Of a stretch of DNA of 14,509 nucleotides, positions 2,030 to 14,509 are shown piece after piece. How positions within the stretch are numbered: position 1 is the first letter of the stretch; every line of letters begins with the position of its first letter. Source of the DNA: a virus (Duplodnaviria; Heunggongvirae; Uroviricota; Caudoviricetes). The translations under genes and the position numbers were made by a program. The stretch is taken from positions 1 to 14,509 of IMG/VR virus record IMGVR_UViG_2534681702_000004, one strand, 5' to 3'. The notes under the pieces are model-generated. The model saw only the letters and a program-made list of their open reading frames with translations. It did no database searches and was not told where the DNA came from.

Positions 2030-4531
2030 CTATCTTTGGTATAACGATTCTTCAAGCTTTCTAATTCTTTCGAAAAGACCTCTCATTATAAATCTATCAA
2101 GCTCCTGATCTCTAAACTGCCAAAGATCACCAGCCGCTCTAATCAACTTCATCTCTCCATTCTTAACTAAGTTTCCAAATTCATCAATTTCAGTAACATA
2201 TTCAAATTCATCATCCCAAGCATCATAACCAATAAATCCGTATTTTTTCCAATCAAGATTATTCTCCTCAAGTATTGCAATAACTTTCTGAACAGTCGTT
2301 CCAGCATGCAGTCTTTTAGATTCATCATCAATCCAAGACCAAAAACCTAGAACTTCTGCAATCTTCATTGCGGCATTTATTTCATCAGCGGTCATACCTC
2401 TAACTGCTGTCTTGAGTCTTGCATCAGAACTTGATTGCGTACCTCCGGCAAAATATCCAACATTATATCTGTTGCTCGCGCGCCCCAAATTTTGGGTTGC
2501 ATCACCAGATGGATGCTGAGTTCCATCGGCTTTAAAAACATAACGATCACTTAAATCTGCAGAAGGAGAGCTTTTTAACGAAATGGTAATATCACCAATT
2601 GATGAAGGTGAAATATCACAACCAGAAAGAGTTGTTGCATTCCTCAGCATGAGATTTCTCTGCGGATGTGCATTAACAGGAATCACCTCTCCTTCCGTAT
2701 CTATAATTACCCCGCCACCGTTATCTATATAGTTTGCAGCAACATTTCCTGACACATCTCCGCTACCAGTCATAACTATCATAGAATCTGTGCAGTTAAC
2801 ACCATACCTTCTGTTGTTTTTCGAACTTGCATTATTAGCTGCTACTGTTGCGTTGTAAACAGAATAGATACCATCTATTACATTATCGCTAGATGTTCCA
2901 CCAGTGAAAGCTATGTTTCCACCATATGACGCTGATACTCCATTTCTGGCATTTAGATATGATCTACCGTTTTCGAAATTAACTTTTGATAACGCCCTGG
3001 CCTCAATACCATTTGTTGAGTTACCACACGCAACACCATTTGGCGCGCTTAACTCACTGTTATTAAATGACCAGAACCCATTCAACCCATTTCCTGAGCA
3101 TACAGATCCGTTGGCCTGAATCGCACCACCGATATCAGATATAATCCCATCTTCACCATTACCAGAGCAAACCATGAATTTTCCTCTGATATGAGCTCCT
3201 TCCGCGTAAATACCGCGCTTTCTATTAGATGATGAAGCTATAAAATTACATACAACACCTGCTCGACCAGAAGCAACAAATCCCTGCTCCCCCCACCCTG
3301 ATATAACAATATCAGGACCAATTGCTAAATTACCAGACATGTCAAATACTTTATTTGATGGATCTGGTTCATCAATTGTTATATCAGGCGTGGCAATAGT
3401 GAACCCATGCGCTCCAATTGTGCCTATAGATTCTGCTACCGAGTAATCACCAACAATGGCTACACCATCAATTGTATTAATACAATCACCACCTGACACG
3501 GCAAAACCATCACAACCAGTATATTTGAGAACCGACTTAATTATAGATACCGATCCTCCAGTTAATGTCGATTCAGGGAAGTTATCAAGATGGCAAGTAT
3601 TATTTACTGTAACATTTGCTCCAGAAACTGACAGTACTTTCCATCCTCCACAGTGCATGTGATATGCACCGGTTCCTGAAACGTCATGTCTAATTATGAT
3701 ATAATCACCAACAGAAACATTTGAAGCATCAGAAAGCGATATCGTTACAGAATAATTTTTCTTCGAACCAGCAACTGATACAAGTGATGTTATTGATGTT
3801 TCATATTTGACACCCTTAATTGTCAAATTATGGGCGCCTATACAACTAACAATGGTCTTTTCTGTAAAATATGAATAGCCAGGGGGAATATTAACTGTAA
3901 GCCGCCCCCTTAACTCACATCTTGAAAACAACTTAAATAATCCAGAAACATCTTTTATTGACGGGTTTGCAACAAACTCACCAGGAGGAATAATTATAGT
4001 TCCTACGTTTGAACTTAAGGCATTTATAATTGCATTTGTTATGCTGCTGTCATTTACAATGTAATCAGCTATGCTGATTGACTCAATCATTTTATCATGA
4101 ACAGTTCTTCTGTCTGACGACATGCCTGGTTGCTTTACGTTAACAAGGTTATCTCCAAGTCCATCCAATGGGCTTAAAAGTTGTGCACGTAGTTGATCTG
4201 GATCATACTTCAGCACATTAGGAAAATAGAACTGCTGCGCACCATACGCATCATAAACAGCCATAGAATGGCCTTGCACGGTAACGAATTTGGCAATCTG
4301 TCCGTTATATACTGGATACCCTGCGGCATTGATGACGATTGGCTGTGCAACAGGAACGTGAGAGCCGTCTTCGTTCTCCACATAGACCTGAATCTGGTTT
4401 TCAGGATTTACCGGGTCAGTGTCAATTTTACCGATATAAATTTTGCCATTGGCTACGGCTTTAAAAGAACGCGCCATAGTGAAGAGTTGCGAAGGCATGC
4501 TTACTACAACATTGGCTGTAATGTCTGTCAT
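2030..4531 (-). CDS. Mosaic tailspike: P22 gp9-type N-terminal head-binding domain (about aa 1-111), divergent beta-helix receptor-binding/depolymerase body, and C-terminal intramolecular-chaperone-like domain (about 2033-2428)
   Basis: The N-terminus [11 protein letters not shown]...[22 protein letters not shown]...ENEDGSH...[12 protein letters not shown]...VLKYDPDQ matches the P22 tailspike head-binding domain from recall; similarity stops after YDPDQ. The middle is Gly/Asn/Ser-rich with repeats typical of a parallel beta-helix. The C-terminus has SSSDARLK, resembling the serine autocleavage motif of endosialidase/K5-lyase-type chaperone domains. GGAG RBS 8 nt upstream of the ATG. Confidence 0.85.
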
Positions 4532-4589: not shown

Positions 4590-4612
4590 AAAAAAACCCA
4601 GCCGAAGCTGGG
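4590..4612 (-). terminator. Rho-independent terminator downstream of ant
   Basis: Minus-strand transcript reads CCCAGC-TTCG-GCTGGG followed by seven T; it sits between the ant stop and the tailspike start. Confidence 0.8.
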
Positions 4613-4631
4613 TCGTTGCGTTGGTTATCTG

Positions 4632-5764: not shown

Positions 5765-5780
5765 ATTCACCTCACAATAT

Positions 5781-5797
5781 AGGTCCACCGTGGACCT
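5781..5797. promoter_or_regulatory. Mnt operator (O_mnt), 17 bp palindrome
   Basis: AGGTCCACCGTGGACCT; its reverse complement AGGTCCACGGTGGACCT is the canonical P22 Mnt operator as recalled. Confidence 0.85.
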
Positions 5798-5806
5798 ATT
5801 GAGAAT

Positions 5807-5827
5807 ATAGTAGAGTGCTTCTATCAT
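5807..5827. promoter_or_regulatory. Arc operator (O_arc), 21 bp, overlapping Pant
   Basis: The reverse complement of 5807-5827 is ATGATAGAAGCACTCTACTAT, the canonical P22 Arc operator as recalled. Confidence 0.85.
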
Positions 5828-5854
5828 GTCAATACACTAACTTGGAGTGATGGC

Positions 5855-6106: not shown

Positions 6107-6124
6107 AGGTGGGTCCTATTTATT
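6092..6124. terminator. Bidirectional rho-independent terminator between convergent mnt and the lipoprotein gene
   Basis: A6 - CCCACC TGAA GGTGGG - TCCTATTTATT. The mnt stop codon TGA lies in the loop. The minus strand has a U6 tract directly after the stem. Confidence 0.75.
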
Positions 6125-6542
6125 AGTCTTGCTTTGTTGATGGTATAAGAGATGCGTTTGCCTCTTTTGGCTTCAAGGTATACATCCCACCATTAAAAGG
6201 ATCTACAGCAAGCCAACCAATTAACCCACCAAACACAAGGTTTCCACCAATATACCAGCCATTAGCATTGGCTTTGATTGGCAGGGTAACTGGTTCGTAC
6301 CCATCCTTTTCCATAGTGATCTGGTAGCTCTTTTTGCCAAAATAACTACCATCTGACTTGGCAAGAGTTACTCCTTGCGGGGTCTTACCTTGCGCAACAA
6401 TCACGCCTGATTCGTCTTTTACCTTAAAGCTCGCACCGGAAGGATTGCTGTTCACTTGCACAAGCTGCGTTTCGTCACCAACAATAGTTGCGCACCCAGA
6501 TAACAATATAGCGCCAGCAACGACGCCAATAATCCTCTTCAT
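6123..6542 (-). CDS. Hypothetical prophage lipoprotein (lipobox LSGC), cargo gene in the sieA position
   Basis: MKRIIGVVAGAILLSGC is a typical signal peptidase II signal. The ORF is followed by a terminator. An alternative start (MEIDMKR...) lies 12 nt upstream at 6554. Function is unknown. Confidence 0.7.
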   Translation of the reverse strand: MKRIIGVVAGAILLSGCATIVGDETQLVQVNSNPSGASFKVKDESGVIVAQGKTPQGVTLAKSDGSYFGKKSYQITMEKDGYEPVTLPIKANANGWYIGGNLVFGGLIGWLAVDPFNGGMYTLKPKEANASLIPSTKQD

Positions 6543-6659
6543 ATCAATTTCCATATTTAAAAAACCGGAAACATCCTAATGACAAACCATTCAAATGTGA
6601 AGTAGGCAAAAGATGTTTACTTTTTTCATGGTATCCTGCTCAAAACTAAGGAGGTTGGC

Positions 6660-7049
6660 GTGAAGCAATTTCTTACTGCTATGTTCTTATTCATATCTTT
6701 TGGGGCTACAGCAGAGTGCTGGGTCGTTGGAGATATGCGCGGAATAAGCTATTCAGAACGAAATAATTTCCATCCGGAAGAAGATGGTTTTAGTGGAACA
6801 TTCATCATTAAGACAAACGGTGAAGATGCCAGCATCACATATTCTGGGACAGATGCGGGCGGCATGGCTTACAAAGCATTGTCTAAAAACTCCATCATAG
6901 GAATCGGCGCGAATGGCGAAACTCAACGCGTTATCGACTCATGGGTAATACATCCTACTGGAACAGTTTTAATGTCAAAAACCATTTCCGGTTATGGAAA
7001 TATGGATTCAACCAAAGCTTTTGTTGGAAAAGTAAAAAGAAAATGTTAG
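6660..7049 (+). CDS. Hypothetical secreted protein (Sec signal peptide with ATA/E cleavage site), cargo gene
   Basis: GTG start with a strong TAAGGAGG RBS at 6647-6654. The N-terminus MKQFLTAMFLFISFGATA is hydrophobic. The mature protein has an N-proximal Cys and a C-terminal Cys. Confidence 0.62.
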   Translation: MKQFLTAMFLFISFGATAECWVVGDMRGISYSERNNFHPEEDGFSGTFIIKTNGEDASITYSGTDAGGMAYKALSKNSIIGIGANGETQRVIDSWVIHPTGTVLMSKTISGYGNMDSTKAFVGKVKRKC

Positions 7050-7073: not shown

Positions 7074-8912
7074 TTACTGCTGTGTTGCCTCAGTAGCAAA
7101 CAGCGGTCTGATGGCATTCGCAGCGTTATTTATCGCTCTTTCATAGGCTGGTGTTCCTGCTTTGGTGTTTGCCAAACGAAGAAGCATATTCCTTGCTGCT
7201 TTGGACTCATACAAGCGCATCATTGCACCAAAACCAGCCTCAAGCCCCATTGATACGCCAAGGGTCGCAGTTGCGCCAATCGTCCTTATCCTGTTGGCTT
7301 GCGATTGCCCCGTCTGAGTTACTACATTTGCGGTGTCTGACCTTGCTGTTTGCTGTAGAACTTCATGAAGAGCATCAAGCTCTTTCATGTGCTTTCCAGA
7401 AAAAATAGTGTTGTAAATTTCACCGCCTGACTGAGATTTCAGCTTATTAACTTCAGTGATGAACTTGGCTGGAGAGTCCCCGGTCTTTTCCGCTATTTTG
7501 CTGACGTAAGCTGCACGCATAGCATCTTTCCCCTTATCATCCAGTGCGCTCCAGATTCGTTTCACGTCAGATGGTTTTCTGCTTAATACAACGGTATTTA
7601 TAAGTTCAGGACTGGCTTCACTGCTTGCCTTGTTGAGCTTGTTGGCAATGTTTTTATTAAGCACCTTATTATAAACGTTTGCATAATCGGAATTTGCTTT
7701 AAGGTATTTTGCTGCGTCTGATGCACCGAGGTTTTTAGCAACTGCGTTACGAAGGTCTTTTGACATTGCATTCTCTACCATATTGGTAGCTGCTTTTGCC
7801 TGGTTGGGGAAGACCATAGCATCTCCCTGAACATTAGATCTAAATGCTGTTCTGTGCTGACGCAAGAGATCAAACGTAACATCCAAATCAGTTGCAGGGT
7901 TTGCTAATTCTTCACGTAGGTTACGCAAGGATGTAAGCAGGCTTTGATTGGCAGACGTCCCAAGCCGTTCCTGTCTTGCGATCGCTGTATTCAGAGCATT
8001 CATGGTATTTGTGGTATCAACTGCGGCATTACCCATTTTATTGGTGACGTCATTGATAACAGCGCCAGCGGCATCCTTCCGCCCCCTTAACGTGGTGGTC
8101 AGAGATTTCACCACATCATCAGGGTTGTACTCACCAAAACGGTCAAAATAATTGCTTACCAGCTTACTCCGCGTTGCATATTGCTCTGCTCGCTTTGAGC
8201 CCGTCCCGAGCAAAGCCCCCTCGGCATCCTGAGTAAGGCCGCGAGTGAAAGCATTTTTCGGCGGGATAACATCAGATGTCATTGGTGTCACGCCCATCGA
8301 TTCTGATGTGGCAATTTTCTTCGCCACTTCTGGCGCAATATCACCTTTTATAGCCGTTATTCCACGCCCTATTCCCTTTGCTGCTGCGGAAAGAACACCC
8401 TGAGCGGCAAGGTTAACTCCGGCATTTTTAGCTGCATTTTGTGCGAAATCGCCTTTCTGATTTGCGGCCTCTGCCAGCGATCCAATAGCCATGCTTCCTG
8501 CCGTTCCAACTCCTGGAACTAAATACCCACCAATTGTTTCACCGGCTTGTGCGTATGGGTCTGTCGGTTTGTCTACTGGACGATAAACATCATCCAAAAC
8601 TTTTGGCCCACCAAGCCCCTGACTGATTGCATTAATCAGACTTGCGCCACCCTGCAATACGTCAAATGGTATGTTTACCAGACCACGACCAGCCTGTTCT
8701 GCAATTTGCCCTGCACTTTGACCACCAGTGAGCCAATCGCCAGCTTGTTGCATCAATGATGGTTCTTCACGTACTGGTGCATTATTGGCCTGATTAACTG
8801 TTTGTTGCTGAACAACCTGACCAGCAAAATAATCATCAATGGCGGCTCCAATATCTTCCGTGCTCGTACCATCAGGGAAGGTAAATGTCTTACCGTTTGC
8901 AGTTACTTTCAT
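7074..8912 (-). CDS. DNA-transfer (ejection) protein, P22 gp16-like
   Basis: About 612 aa, starting [32 protein letters not shown], which resembles P22 gp16 from recall. Ala/Gly/Gln-rich composition. The start overlaps the upstream gene stop (TGATG). An alternative ATG lies at 8915. Position matches gene 16 in the P22 order 20-16-sieA-mnt-arc-ant-9. Confidence 0.72.
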
Positions 8913-9740
8913 CATTCCACCGTAAATTGAATGCCTGATTTTGAGGTATATGATCCAACCTGATTCCGTGGTTCTCCTGAAGGTGTCGAATCTTGTGCTG
9001 GCGCTGCGTCAGTATTCAATGACATATACCGCTTAACGGCACTCCCCAATGATTCACCTTTTTTAACATCCAACCCCAATATCTGACCGCCATTACGCGA
9101 TTGTCCAGGATTGCCATTCGCGCTCATCCACTCAGCTTTAAACTCATTAAACTGCGCGTTTCGTCGCTCAAGGTTTGCCATTGCATCAAGCCATCTTGCG
9201 ACCGTCTCAGGGTTATCCATGTCAGTTGGCGCACCCTGCCGAACGATCTCAACGTCTTTATCCGTTGCTGGGCCGGGAGGTAGGAATTTAAGAACCTGAC
9301 TGTTAACAAGGGCATTTTGGCGGATGCGCAAATCACGCAATGTCGTATCGCTTCCGGTAAGTTTTGCGAACATGTTCTGTGCGTTACCGAACAAACCTGT
9401 CGTTGGTTTTTCTGCTCTGAACTGTTGAGCAAGCGCACTCATAGAATTGGCTGAGTTTGATGATGCTGTGGCATTGTTTACAGCCGTCTCGATGCCTTTT
9501 TCCATGTTTACTGACAGCTTAGGTGCTTCACTAATCAACTGCTGAGCCTTTTCCTGCGCTTGCTGCATCTTAAACCCGAACTCTTGCTGATCCAGAGCCA
9601 AGCGTTGTGCTGCGATATTGTGCCCAGTCATTGCTGACTGATAGGAAAGGTTTTGCCCTCTCGCCTGAAGTGCTTCACCAGCCTGATTGCTGCGGATTGT
9701 CTCTGCCAGCCTGCCTCGGTCAATTTCACGACCAGCCATC
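8912..9740 (-). pseudogene. Ejection protein (gp20-like), 3' portion, separated from its 5' portion by IS629
   Basis: The ORF continues in frame with the 11051-11283 fragment once the IS and one ATC copy are removed (352 aa total). The stop overlaps the gp16-like start. Confidence 0.6.
9738..9740. repeat. Target-site duplication ATC (left copy) of the IS629 insertion
   Basis: ATC immediately flanks both IS termini (9738-9740 and 11051-11053). Confidence 0.75.
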
Positions 9741-9782
9741 TGAACCGCCCCGGGTTTCCTGGAGAGTATTTTATCTGTGAAC

Positions 9783-10673
9783 TCAGGCTGCCAGATCATT
9801 ATTTCCGATGGAAGCATAATAAGCTTTTTCTGCTTCTGCCGGAGGAATATGGCCCAGCCTTTCCAGCAATCGTCGATTGTTATACCAGTCCACCCACGTT
9901 AGTGTGGCCAGTTCCACTTCTGTCCGGTTTTTCCAGCTCTTACGGTGTATTACCTCCGCTTTGTAAAGACCATTGATGCTCTCAGCCATCGCGTTGTCAT
10001 ACGAGTCGCCAGTACTCCCTGTTGATGCCAGTAATCCGGCTTCCTTAAGCCGCTGCGTGTAGGCCAGCGATACATACTGAGAACCTTTATCACTGTGATG
10101 GATTGTGCCGGACGGCCGACGGGCCCACAACGCCTGCTCCAGTGCATCCAGCACGAATGTTGTTTCCATGGATGATGAGACCTGCCATCCCACGATGTAT
10201 CCGGCGAACACATCAATGATGAACGCCACATAAACGAAGCCCTGCCATGTGCTTACCCAGGTAAAATCAGCCACCCACAACTGGTCTGGACGTTCTGCCA
10301 CGAACTGACGGTTTACGCGGTCGCATGCGGCAACGGCTTTCCGGCTGACGGTAGTGCGGACCTTTTTCCCCCGGAGAACACCGGCAAGTCCCATAACTGC
10401 CATGAGACGTGCCACAGTGCATCTGGCCACTCTGATACCTTCCCGTAACAACTGACGCCAGACTTTACGCACACCGTATACCTGGTGATTTTCATCGTAT
10501 ACGCGCTGTATCTCTTTCTTCAGCCAGTCATCGTGCTGCGCACGGGCACTGCGTTTATCCGGATGATGTCGCTGTTGCTGACAATGGTAATACGTTGACG
10601 GGGCAATATGCAGTTCGCTACATACCGGTCCGACCCCGTACTGCTCACGCAGCTTATCCAGCAGTGGCATCAT
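9783..10673 (-). CDS. IS629 transposase OrfB (DDE integrase domain)
   Basis: 296 aa ...[50 protein letters not shown]...[10 protein letters not shown]...[15 protein letters not shown]... matches IS629 OrfB from recall. Confidence 0.9.
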
Positions 10674-10996
10674 TTTTTCCAGAGGCGGTCGAACTCCGCC
10701 TTCGCAAAATAAGCGGAAGCCTGGCGAAGGATATCGTTACTGCGGCGCAGTTCACGATTTTCACGTTCCAGCTCTTTCAGACGCTGACGTTCAGCGCTGG
10801 TGAGCCCACCATCACCGCCCCCGGTATCCCGCTCATGCTGGCGAACCCAGACACGCAGAGTCTCCGGCGTACAGCCAATCTTTGGGGCAATGGAACAAAT
10901 TGCCGCCCACTGTGAGTCATATTCATCCTGACTTTCCAGAACCATACGAATCGCCCGCTGACGGACTTCGGGGGAAAAACGAGTATTTTTAGTCAT
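10670..10996 (-). CDS. IS629 transposase OrfA (HTH / leucine zipper)
   Basis: 108 aa [61 protein letters not shown]... matches IS629 OrfA from recall. An A6 run sits at the orfA/orfB overlap. Confidence 0.9.
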
Positions 10997-11050
10997 CCTG
11001 TTTACCTCTTTCTCAGGGAGTTTAGTCTCCAGGATTTCCGGGGCGGTTCA

Positions 11051-11053
11051 ATC
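11051..11053. repeat. Target-site duplication ATC (right copy) of the IS629 insertion
   Basis: See left copy. Confidence 0.75.
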
Positions 11054-11283
11054 TTATCCTGAACAGCAAACGCCTTTTCTGGTCCAAGCGCACCGAGAGA
11101 CATAGTAGTCAGCATGTGTGATAGCTGCTCTGGATTCTGGATACCTGTCTGAATCATCCAGTCAGCATTAGCACCAACGCGATTTAACCTGTCCTTGTTG
11201 TCAGTAATGAATTTACTGTAGGCTTCCGGTCCCTGAGAAAGAGCGACGTTAGCCCTCATGGCTAAATCGCCCATAACCGACAT
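11051..11283 (-). pseudogene. Ejection protein (gp20-like), 5' portion (77 codons), interrupted by IS629
   Basis: ATG at 11283 with an in-frame stop 36 nt upstream and no convincing RBS. The reading frame is continuous with 8912-9737 after IS removal. Confidence 0.55.
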
Positions 11284-11482: not shown

Positions 11483-13784
<2,302 letters not shown>

Positions 13785-13789
13785 GTAAC
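13785..13789. repeat. Target-site duplication GTAAC (right copy) of the IS100 insertion
   Basis: See left copy. Confidence 0.8.
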
Positions 13790-14509
13790 AAGCGTTCTTC
13801 TGAAATCATGTGTTCGCCAGTAACCTATATCCATCCCTCCCCTTATTCTATTTACGAATCGGTTGGCTGCAGCGATGCTGATCGGTTTGTTTATGTCTTC
13901 TCCAGGGAAAAGAACATCATTGTACGTTGTCATGGCCTTTTCGAGGAAAGGCTTAATTTGTTCGAAGATTGGACGGCGGATAACATTACCCATCTTGCTA
14001 TGCTCTTTCGGTACGGTCCATACGTTGTCCAGCAGGTCAAACTCTGTCTTTGTTGCCAGCCTAAGCTCTGAGAGCCTCGCCCCCCACAGCATAAGCATCT
14101 GATGAAGTAGCTTATTTGACGTAGACGCACGGCTTCTTTCAATAGCAAGCCAAATCTTAGCCAGTTCGTGATACGACAGTACCCGATCCCCTACCTCAGC
14201 GCGGGAGCCGAAGTCCCTTGGTTGGATGCTCATAATTGCGCAACTATCTATCAACTGACGCCGCATGCACCAACTTATTGCTGATCTTAGTTGACTTAGC
14301 ACCTGCCTTGCTCGGCGTGGATTATCTCTTTCTTCTTCGGTAAGCAGGTCAACCCATTGCTTAACCGTGATAGAAGATGCCGGACGATTAGGAAAGGCGT
14401 CATGCATGCGCTTCATAACCGTTGATCGGTAAAGTGCCTGGGTCTTTTCTCTGAGAGTTGTAGAGACGTAGTTGTCGAACCAGTAGTCGAGACACTGGGC
14501 GACCGTCAT
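13785..14509 (-). pseudogene. P4-type tyrosine integrase, 5' portion (core-binding and part of catalytic domain through HDFRRT), interrupted by IS100; may extend beyond the window
   Basis: ...GYWRTHDFRRTLVT at the junction. The window ends on an ATG (MTVAQ...), but P4-type integrases usually have an extra N-terminal arm-binding domain, so the true start may lie outside. Confidence 0.78.

Follow-up and report, generated by a model that had tools for sequence, protein, structure and literature searches.

The window analyzed here, 14,509 nucleotides (nt) of the Caudoviricetes record IMGVR_UViG_2534681702_000004 in IMG/VR, carries on its minus strand an intact open reading frame (ORF; 2030-4531) for an 833-amino-acid (aa) tailspike protein. 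This protein is likely to be the modular tailspike of a P22-like (Lederbergvirus-type) temperate phage, a depolymerase of the Escherichia coli K15 capsule with an architecture like that of the phage CUS-3 tailspike, and it is close to certain that it consists of a head-binding domain, a beta-helix, and an S74 chaperone. In the model that we propose, the trimer would be anchored to the virion's tail hub by residues 1 to 113, while the beta-helix most likely would bind and hydrolyze the K15 group-2 capsule and thereby open a path for the phage through the capsules of K15 strains such as enterotoxigenic E. coli (ETEC) O6:K15:H16 and uropathogenic E. coli (UPEC) 536. All of the gene past about codon 115 would have come, by recombination, from a store of receptor-binding modules common to unrelated phages.

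The head-binding (virion-attachment) domain, aa 1-113 (4193..4531, minus strand), was recognized by Pfam, phmmer, and Foldseek alike. Pfam Head_binding (PF09008) matched aa 1-113 over its full profile (positions 1-113; E=1.4e-66, 222 bits, against a gathering score of 24). By phmmer, aa 2-115 aligned to P22 gp9 (E~1e-50, solved structures) and aa 1-174 to Sf6 gp14, the latter with near identity up to the motif VLKYDPDQ (aa 106-113, window 4193-4216) and weak similarity beyond it. Foldseek gave identities of 90-93% to the N-terminal domain of Sf6 gp14 and 74-76% to P22 gp9; TM-scores for the full-length model were poor, the orientation of domains in a monomer being arbitrary, and only E-values and match identities were used from that search. 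Predicted local confidence (pLDDT) for this domain was low in the AlphaFold2 monomer prediction because the alignment was shallow. It was likewise low for aa 114-163 (4043..4192, minus strand), which form the neck and the body's N-terminal cap; this segment recurs in the receptor-binding protein of phage 536P12 from aa 116 on, and a weak similarity to Sf6 gp14 reaches aa 174. With PF09008 above its gathering score, a position as last gene of the late region, and a right-handed parallel beta-helix at its center, the protein has three features expected of a P22-like (Lederbergvirus) tailspike.

Comparison at the DNA level places a recombination junction at about codons 114-116 (4184..4192, minus strand), where identity to other P22-like tailspike genes ends. 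Relative to phage CUS-3, DNA identity of at least 90% sets in within ant, about 440 nt ahead of the start codon, and lasts to about nt 344 of the gene; beyond this point (window ~4188, codon ~115) it drops to random. A total of 1152 E. coli records match the tailspike gene, and only 16 of these match past its first ~350 nt. A mosaic joint at about aa 115 is already known for P22-like tailspikes (PMC2629481). The accompanying break in base composition is real, clear in GC content at third codon positions (GC3) and modest in total GC. GC3 is 0.446 in the upstream ant gene and 0.434 in the head-binding part, but the body has only 0.259 and the C-terminal domain 0.250 (49/113 versus 185/720 across the junction; Fisher p=1.8e-4), and total GC goes from 0.445 to 0.396 and 0.361 over the same three parts of the gene. 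GC3 is the informative measure here, the single-breakpoint likelihood scan of total GC having placed a marginal break at window 4109 that was matched by 13/300 permutations. A side observation concerns the same boundary in public data: searching a set of 5.8 billion proteins with the head-binding domain returned almost only short partial fragments and no count of proteins joining this domain to S74, and hundreds of database entries are "partial" head-binding-domain proteins of 110-215 aa located at the ends of contigs. It seems that short-read assembly regularly breaks off where P22-like tailspike genes pass from conserved to variable sequence.

Past the neck lies the presumed glycan-binding and -cleaving domain, a right-handed parallel beta-helix of aa 164-613 (2693..4042, minus strand). 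AlphaFold2, run with a 38-sequence alignment, modeled most of aa 180-600 with pLDDT >90 and as beta strands throughout. The sequence register shows nine 23-residue coils over aa 407-613 (2693-3313, minus strand), with an asparagine ladder in seven of the nine (positions 458, 481, 504, 527, 550, 573, and 596) and a glycine ladder alongside, and a Pfam Beta_helix match at aa 456-583 fell below threshold. The coil ladder and the model together settle the fold but not the chemistry. Family databases add little over this region: NCBIfam had no match to the protein, and in PHROGs v4 more than 20 families matched the N-terminus only, none covered the central body (about aa 230-520), and the sole non-N-terminal matches were two tail-fiber families at aa 653-830 and aa 519-830. 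We considered and excluded an identity as a glycoside hydrolase family 58 (GH58) endosialidase, as the Pfam scan found no End_* domain (End_beta_propel, End_tail_spike) in the protein, while the CUS-3 control showed all of them, and the body has a pectin-lyase fold instead. D341 and D461 never vary across the family, in which identity has fallen to about 30%, and D362, E415, E444, E460, and D466 are more than 90% conserved, making these acidic positions candidate active-site residues.

The body and chaperone are found behind other anchors in unrelated phages, which argues for a module swap. Over about 670-720 aa they are 55-63% identical to the receptor-binding proteins of 536P12, 536P1, VEcB, and ETEC-TG, which hold the same module, cleavage motif included, but belong to virulent sipho- and myoviruses. 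Homology begins at aa 116 for the Sashavirus 536P12 and at aa 164 for the Justusliebigvirus VEcB, the Phapecoctavirus 536P1, and phage ETEC-TG, and runs to the end of the protein; the N-terminal anchors of these four are Tail_spike_N or none recognized, not the head-binding domain. The fiber of the T7-like phage IMM-002 (MF630921, 34234-36384) is 35% identical and has the same body and S74 layout. Spikes specific for the O16 antigen likewise carry homologous pectin-lyase-fold domains behind variable anchors in different phage families (PMC11990801). The present gene is thus one more clean, and expected, case of receptor-binding modules moving among podo-, sipho-, and myoviruses behind different anchors. 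An earlier note on this DNA, made from the letters alone, had proposed that a P22-type head-binding domain stops abruptly after VLKYDPDQ near nt 4198, that the gene is more AT-rich downstream and encodes beta-helix repeats there, and that a module had been swapped. These proposals held up: the Pfam and phmmer matches end where expected, the DNA junction at ~4188 agrees within about 10 nt, both GC3 and total GC fall across it, the nine laddered coils and the all-beta model account for the repeats, and the sharp junction, the GC3 break, and the shared module bear out the swap.

Exchange also appears to have occurred within the helix. A second ETEC O6:K15 allele (E66 type, found in E66, E54, and E143 and also in PK12) is 83% identical overall to the window allele; it equals the window allele in aa 1-~140 and aa ~510-833, but the DNA for the helix's N-terminal half is only 55-70% identical (window 2992-4102, gene nt ~430-1540; L005:24-2522). 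Over aa 164-470, the E66 allele is 77-92% identical to the 536-phage proteins and the window allele only 51-74%; within aa 164-300, identity of the window allele to the 536P12, 536P1, VEcB, and ETEC-TG proteins is as low as about 51-56%. This mosaic indicates recombination inside the helix too, which possibly tunes recognition, for example, of O-acetylated K15.

The K15 polysaccharide, ->4)-alpha-GlcNAc-(1->5)-alpha-Kdo-(2-> (GlcNAc, N-acetylglucosamine; Kdo, 3-deoxy-D-manno-octulosonic acid) with partial 3-O-acetylation, is the capsule of ETEC O6:K15:H16 and of the uropathogenic model strain 536 (PMC7387560). With the capsule locus of strain 536 as query, 5426 E. coli genomes were searched. 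K15-specific region-2 genes occur in 63 of the 5426 (1.2%), in all cases at >=99% identity, and these 63 include 15 of the 16 carriers of the tailspike body, three non-O6 strains among them (Fisher p=2.5e-29). A frequency of 15/16 against a base rate of 1.2% lends the capsule-depolymerase reading independent support. The carrier prophages occupy three attachment sites (sbcB, argW, and thrW), and when distinct prophage backbones and attachment sites are counted, at least 4 independent events stand against the 1.2% background (about 2e-8). The related lytic phages 536P12 and 536P1 were, moreover, isolated on strain 536, a K15 strain. Judged from these genome comparisons, the K15 capsule is probably the substrate. 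In selections for resistance to 536_P1, 18% of mutations fell in the K15 region and abolished adsorption (PMC11495123), and a K15 specificity, if true, would explain why this phage selects K15-locus mutations.

The O6 O-antigen was our first hypothesis for the best target and was dropped, with 4/16 carriers (M172-1, GPEC859, PK12, and LR-27) lacking O6 wzy. Stated in full, this alternative holds that the spike is an endoglycosidase specific for the neutral repeat of N-acetylgalactosamine, two mannoses, and N-acetylglucosamine (GalNAc-Man-Man-GlcNAc), as the P22, Sf6, and HK620 tailspikes are for their O-antigens, and we now regard it as quite unlikely. It has a statistical association of its own, O6 wzy (concatenated query) being present in 12/16 carriers versus 154/5426 genomes (Fisher p=3e-16); the related phages were isolated on strain 536, an O6 strain; and resistance to 536_P1 maps mainly to lipopolysaccharide (LPS) genes. 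The prophage also lies 38-55 kb from the O6 rfb cluster in ETEC (NZ_LR883050.1 1830392-1871007; L003, L001), with O6 wzx/wzy of the host 38 kb away. This same proximity undercuts the association, however, since a prophage at sbcB and the nearby O6 rfb cluster can be transferred together in recombination, inflating the O6 count; the 12 O6 carriers all belong to ETEC O6:H16, and their prophages share one rfb-linked locus, a pattern that is clonal or due to hitchhiking. Conversely, M172-1, GPEC859, and PK12, which have a full-length or near-full-length gene, lack O6 wzy, yet all three carry the K15 genes, and the wzy type of M172-1 is absent from the other non-O6 carriers. The LPS mutations selected by 536_P1 are in core and heptose genes (waa, galU, lpcA, and rfaE) and are not specific for the O-antigen (PMC11495123).

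Alternatively, the link to K15 may be indirect, and the helix may be a noncatalytic receptor-binding domain or may act on another glycan, such as colanic acid, an O-acetyl-type modification, or an unknown polymer. This seems unlikely, although somewhat less so than an O6 specificity. Against it, the acidic residues D341, D461, E415, E444, E460, and D466, invariant or more than 90% conserved, show a pattern usual for active-site grooves; a spike that destroys the receptor is generally required by P22-like podoviruses (PMC11990801); and the association with K15 extends across independent lineages.

Several points nonetheless weigh against a K15-cleaving tailspike. Enzyme activity and cleavage are predictions, and co-occurrence with a capsule type is not proof of a substrate. 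ETEC O6:H16 strains related to one another make up 12 of the 15 K15 carriers, so that about 4-6 independent events, not 15, underlie the association. LR-27 is the sole carrier without kps or a K15 locus, its gene being a 5'-truncated relic, and in M172-1 the K15 region 2 is interrupted by IS1. The N-terminal half of the helix is only 51-74% identical to its counterparts in the 536 phages, whose specificity may differ accordingly. Finally, the authors who described 536_P1 could not show K15 to be the receptor and proposed instead that capsule overproduction masks LPS (PMC11495123). We infer that a sensitive, capsulated wild type is what would be expected if 536_P1 carries a K15 depolymerase.

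Should K15 be the substrate, hydrolysis would seem more likely than beta-elimination, as the K15 polysaccharide contains no uronic acid. K15 is absent from a list of E. coli K types with known depolymerases (PMC12488582), and our literature searches, whose coverage was incomplete and which give absence of evidence only, found no K15 depolymerase; neither a phage-host prediction preprint nor a paper on ETEC lineage 2 makes a statement on the receptors of the related phages or on this prophage. Specificity of a phage enzyme for K15 has thus apparently not been described so far. If it is borne out, the gene and its relatives in the 536 phages would be a ready-made reagent for typing or stripping K15 capsules. 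It would also bear on phage IMM-002, reported to use the CS3 fimbria as its receptor; its lysis was confined to O6 CS3-positive strains and did not extend to O6 CS17 strains (PMC6301781). Among the genomes examined, CS3-positive O6 ETEC lineages carry K15 genes, so capsule specificity would offer an alternative explanation for the "CS3-specific" host range of IMM-002 and may confound the conclusion on its receptor. The ETEC carriers of the tailspike gene are O6:H16 strains of lineages L1 and L2. Overall, the practical value for phage work on ETEC and UPEC is moderate, and there is little conceptual surprise.

The C-terminal part of the protein is predicted to direct folding and then to leave. 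The mature protein would end in a stalk or interdigitated region (aa 614-701; 2429..2692, minus strand), whose aa 654-701 align to the distal tip of T5 pb1; after it comes the Peptidase_S74 intramolecular chaperone domain, aa 702-833 (2033..2428, minus strand; 15.5 kDa; stop codon at 2030-2032). PF13884 matched aa 702-757 with 31.8 bits against its gathering score of 22. By phmmer, aa 654-830 aligned to the T5 pb1 tip and chaperone (4uw8; E=2e-27), and other chaperone matches were 7y5s (E=3e-23), the C-terminal domain of phi29 gp12 (E=2e-7), and 6eu4. Foldseek with the modeled C-terminal domain returned 4uw8 (E=5e-11) and the endoNF endosialidase chaperone 3gw6 (E=5e-6). The secondary structure of the AlphaFold2 model, with helices at 715-727, 747-756, and 808-832 and hairpins at 767-806, fits the S74 fold with its helices, "tentacle" hairpin, and terminal coiled-coil helix.

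At the start of the chaperone, SSSDARLK aligns to T1263-A1264(S1264A)-D-A-R-L-K1269 of 4uw8, and all five catalytic-site residues of pb1 are kept: D677/D1239, R688/R1250, S701/T1263, S702/S1264, and K707/K1269. Among the 38 aligned proteins, S702, D703, and K707 are each conserved in 31, D677 in 34, and R688 in 35, and the motif S-D-x-x-x-K is present in every aligned member that has this C-terminal domain. In T5 pb1, Ser1264 is the nucleophile, Lys1269 activates it, and the Thr1263-Ser1264 bond is cut; Arg1250 of the neighboring chain, placed between Asp1239 and Thr1263, forms the oxyanion hole, so that cleavage can take place only after correct interdigitation of the trimer (PMC4690869). By alignment, the window protein has a putative autocleavage site at S701/S702 (2426..2431, minus strand) with S702 as nucleophile, a putative general base at K707 (2411-2413, minus strand), and putative folding-sensor residues at D677 (2501-2503, minus strand) and R688 (2468-2470, minus strand). 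Thus, the last 132 residues would nucleate trimer folding of the C-terminal stalk in the manner of other S74-type intramolecular chaperones; once the stalk has interdigitated, R688 of the neighboring chain together with D677 would complete the active site, K707 would activate S702, and the S701-S702 bond would be cut. Such self-cleavage after trimer folding, predicted here from aligned residues, would take the 89.0-kDa chain (computed masses throughout) to a 73.5-kDa mature subunit (aa 1-701), freeing a 15.5-kDa fragment.

The earlier note had likewise suspected a serine autocleavage site of the chaperone type and suggested looking for Peptidase_S74 over 2033-2428. Both suggestions were well placed, given the Ser-Lys dyad and Asp/Arg sensor residues that align to pb1 and the match above cutoff in that interval. 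Its statement that the last 132 aa begin with SSSDARLK needs a small correction: the 132-aa piece is right (702-833, 2033-2428), but it starts with SDARLK, and SSSDARLK begins two residues earlier at aa 700.

A very different fate for the C-terminus, in which it is retained as a permanent distal domain, or in which the gene is a decaying relic whose product does not fold, is in our estimation very improbable. The gene does lie within a gutted prophage, and six or seven relatives of the body have the helix but other C-termini without S74. The helix and chaperone are thus separable, and S74 is not strictly required by the helix. Weighing more heavily in the other direction, the ORF is intact and one synonymous substitution away from the copy in strain E925, substitutions between alleles are mostly synonymous, and all proposed S74 catalytic residues are present. 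Uncleaved T5 pb1, furthermore, was inactive in receptor competition (PMC4690869).

The three-part architecture read here, with an S74 chaperone at its end, is not new, as the tailspike of CUS-3, a prophage of E. coli K1, is a precedent. In the same Pfam scan, the CUS-3 protein combined a head-binding domain, a capsule-degrading body, and Peptidase_S74; its gene occupies the same genomic slot after ant, and it is also aimed at a group-2 capsule. Its body, however, is a GH58 beta-propeller endosialidase with its own stalk (End_* domains), whereas that of the window protein is a pectin-lyase-fold beta-helix, and its target is K1 polysialic acid, whereas the window spike probably acts on K15. P22 gp9, Sf6 gp14, and the HK620 tailspike share with the window protein the head-binding domain, a right-handed beta-helix, the late-operon position, and the boundary at about aa 115 (PMC2629481), but they lack S74 and end in a beta-prism or caudal fin, act on O-antigens, and have bodies without recognizable sequence similarity to the window body. 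T5 pb1 is the best solved match to aa 654-830, with the SDARLK site, the Asp/Arg/Thr/Ser/Lys set, and a chaperone of about 133 residues; in contrast to the window protein, it is a long fiber with a bullet-shaped, nonenzymatic tip that binds polymannose O-antigen and has neither a beta-helix depolymerase body nor a head-binding domain. The receptor-binding protein gp15 of Staphylococcus phage Andhra (PDB 8egr), also compared, differs in coming from a picovirus of a Gram-positive host, in having another substrate, and in lacking a head-binding domain, and no S74 match was seen in it.

The gene sits in a remnant. The window matches a region of ETEC O6:H16 genomes in which sbcB and dacD flank a prophage remnant. 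The integrase is truncated (13712-14509) and borders on IS100 (istA/istB; 11898-13698), which joins it directly to the ejection-protein genes; these are followed by two small morons, immI (mnt, arc, ant), the tailspike gene, and IS2 (1-1229), downstream of the tailspike. Upstream of the tailspike are a gp16-like gene (phrog_770), Arc, and Ant (P22_AR_N/C). A gp20-like ejection gene is cut into 8912-9817 and 11002-11283 by an IS3-family element (9783-10996) that strain E925 lacks, so the window stems from a near relation of E925 and not from that strain. Genes for the head, for lysis, and for early functions are all missing from the window prophage. It is unable to make virions, and its tailspike is a leftover without an obvious role in situ. 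The gene itself has a single synonymous substitution relative to the lineage-1 strain E925 and is 99.9-100% identical in eight complete genomes, that of E925 among them.

Elsewhere, the tailspike gene is a working phage part. In GPEC859 (chicken; argW) and M172-1 (pangolin; sbcB), alleles with 98.6-99.4% DNA identity form the end of P22-like prophages that appear to be complete and have the same gene order, with the tailspike last after the ejection genes and immI (mnt/arc/ant); differences between alleles comprise 17 synonymous and 7 nonsynonymous changes in one comparison and 10 and 4 in the other. The variant (E66-type) allele lies in a thrW prophage of PK12. It is tempting, but a long shot, to suppose that the intact, near-invariant ORF in gutted prophages of the ETEC O6:K15:H16 lineages, which are globally dominant, reflects use by the host or by other resident P22-like phages, and that the body founds an uncharacterized glycoside hydrolase family cutting the unusual alpha-Kdo/alpha-GlcNAc backbone of K15. 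Were this true, such use might consist of spike borrowing that retargets virions or of capsule turnover on lysis.

Two of the carriers show rearrangements of their own. In LR-27 (L008:46983-49124), the tailspike gene from about nt 381 on has been joined by a deletion to the sequence that directly follows the endolysin gene; the resulting fusion, annotated as "tail fiber domain-containing protein", lacks the head-binding domain and is a 5'-truncated copy in a remnant. In M172-1 (L010:20252-20905; NZ_CP058714.1 2852272-2856515), IS1 lies beside a truncated O-antigen flippase gene in the rfb cluster, and loss of surface glycan after lysogeny or under phage pressure is possible in this strain.

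The sequences around the tailspike gene retain features of the P22 control region. Between ant and the start of the tailspike gene, a consensus scan found a strong terminator-like hairpin with an 8-bp stem and a T run after it (4595..4614, minus strand), and its placement agrees with the P22 layout, in which ant is a moron upstream of gene 9 (PMC2629481). The control layout of immI is kept as well, with divergent promoter-like sites within 5776-5832 for arc/ant (minus strand, TTGACA-17-TATATT) and mnt (plus strand). Between the gp16-like gene and immI lie both small morons: a lipoprotein-like ORF of 143 aa (phrog_6823; 6123-6554, minus strand) and a signal-peptide-like ORF of 129 aa (phrog_2651; 6660-7049, plus strand), neither with a Pfam match. 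Their position suggests that they are superinfection-exclusion or conversion genes.

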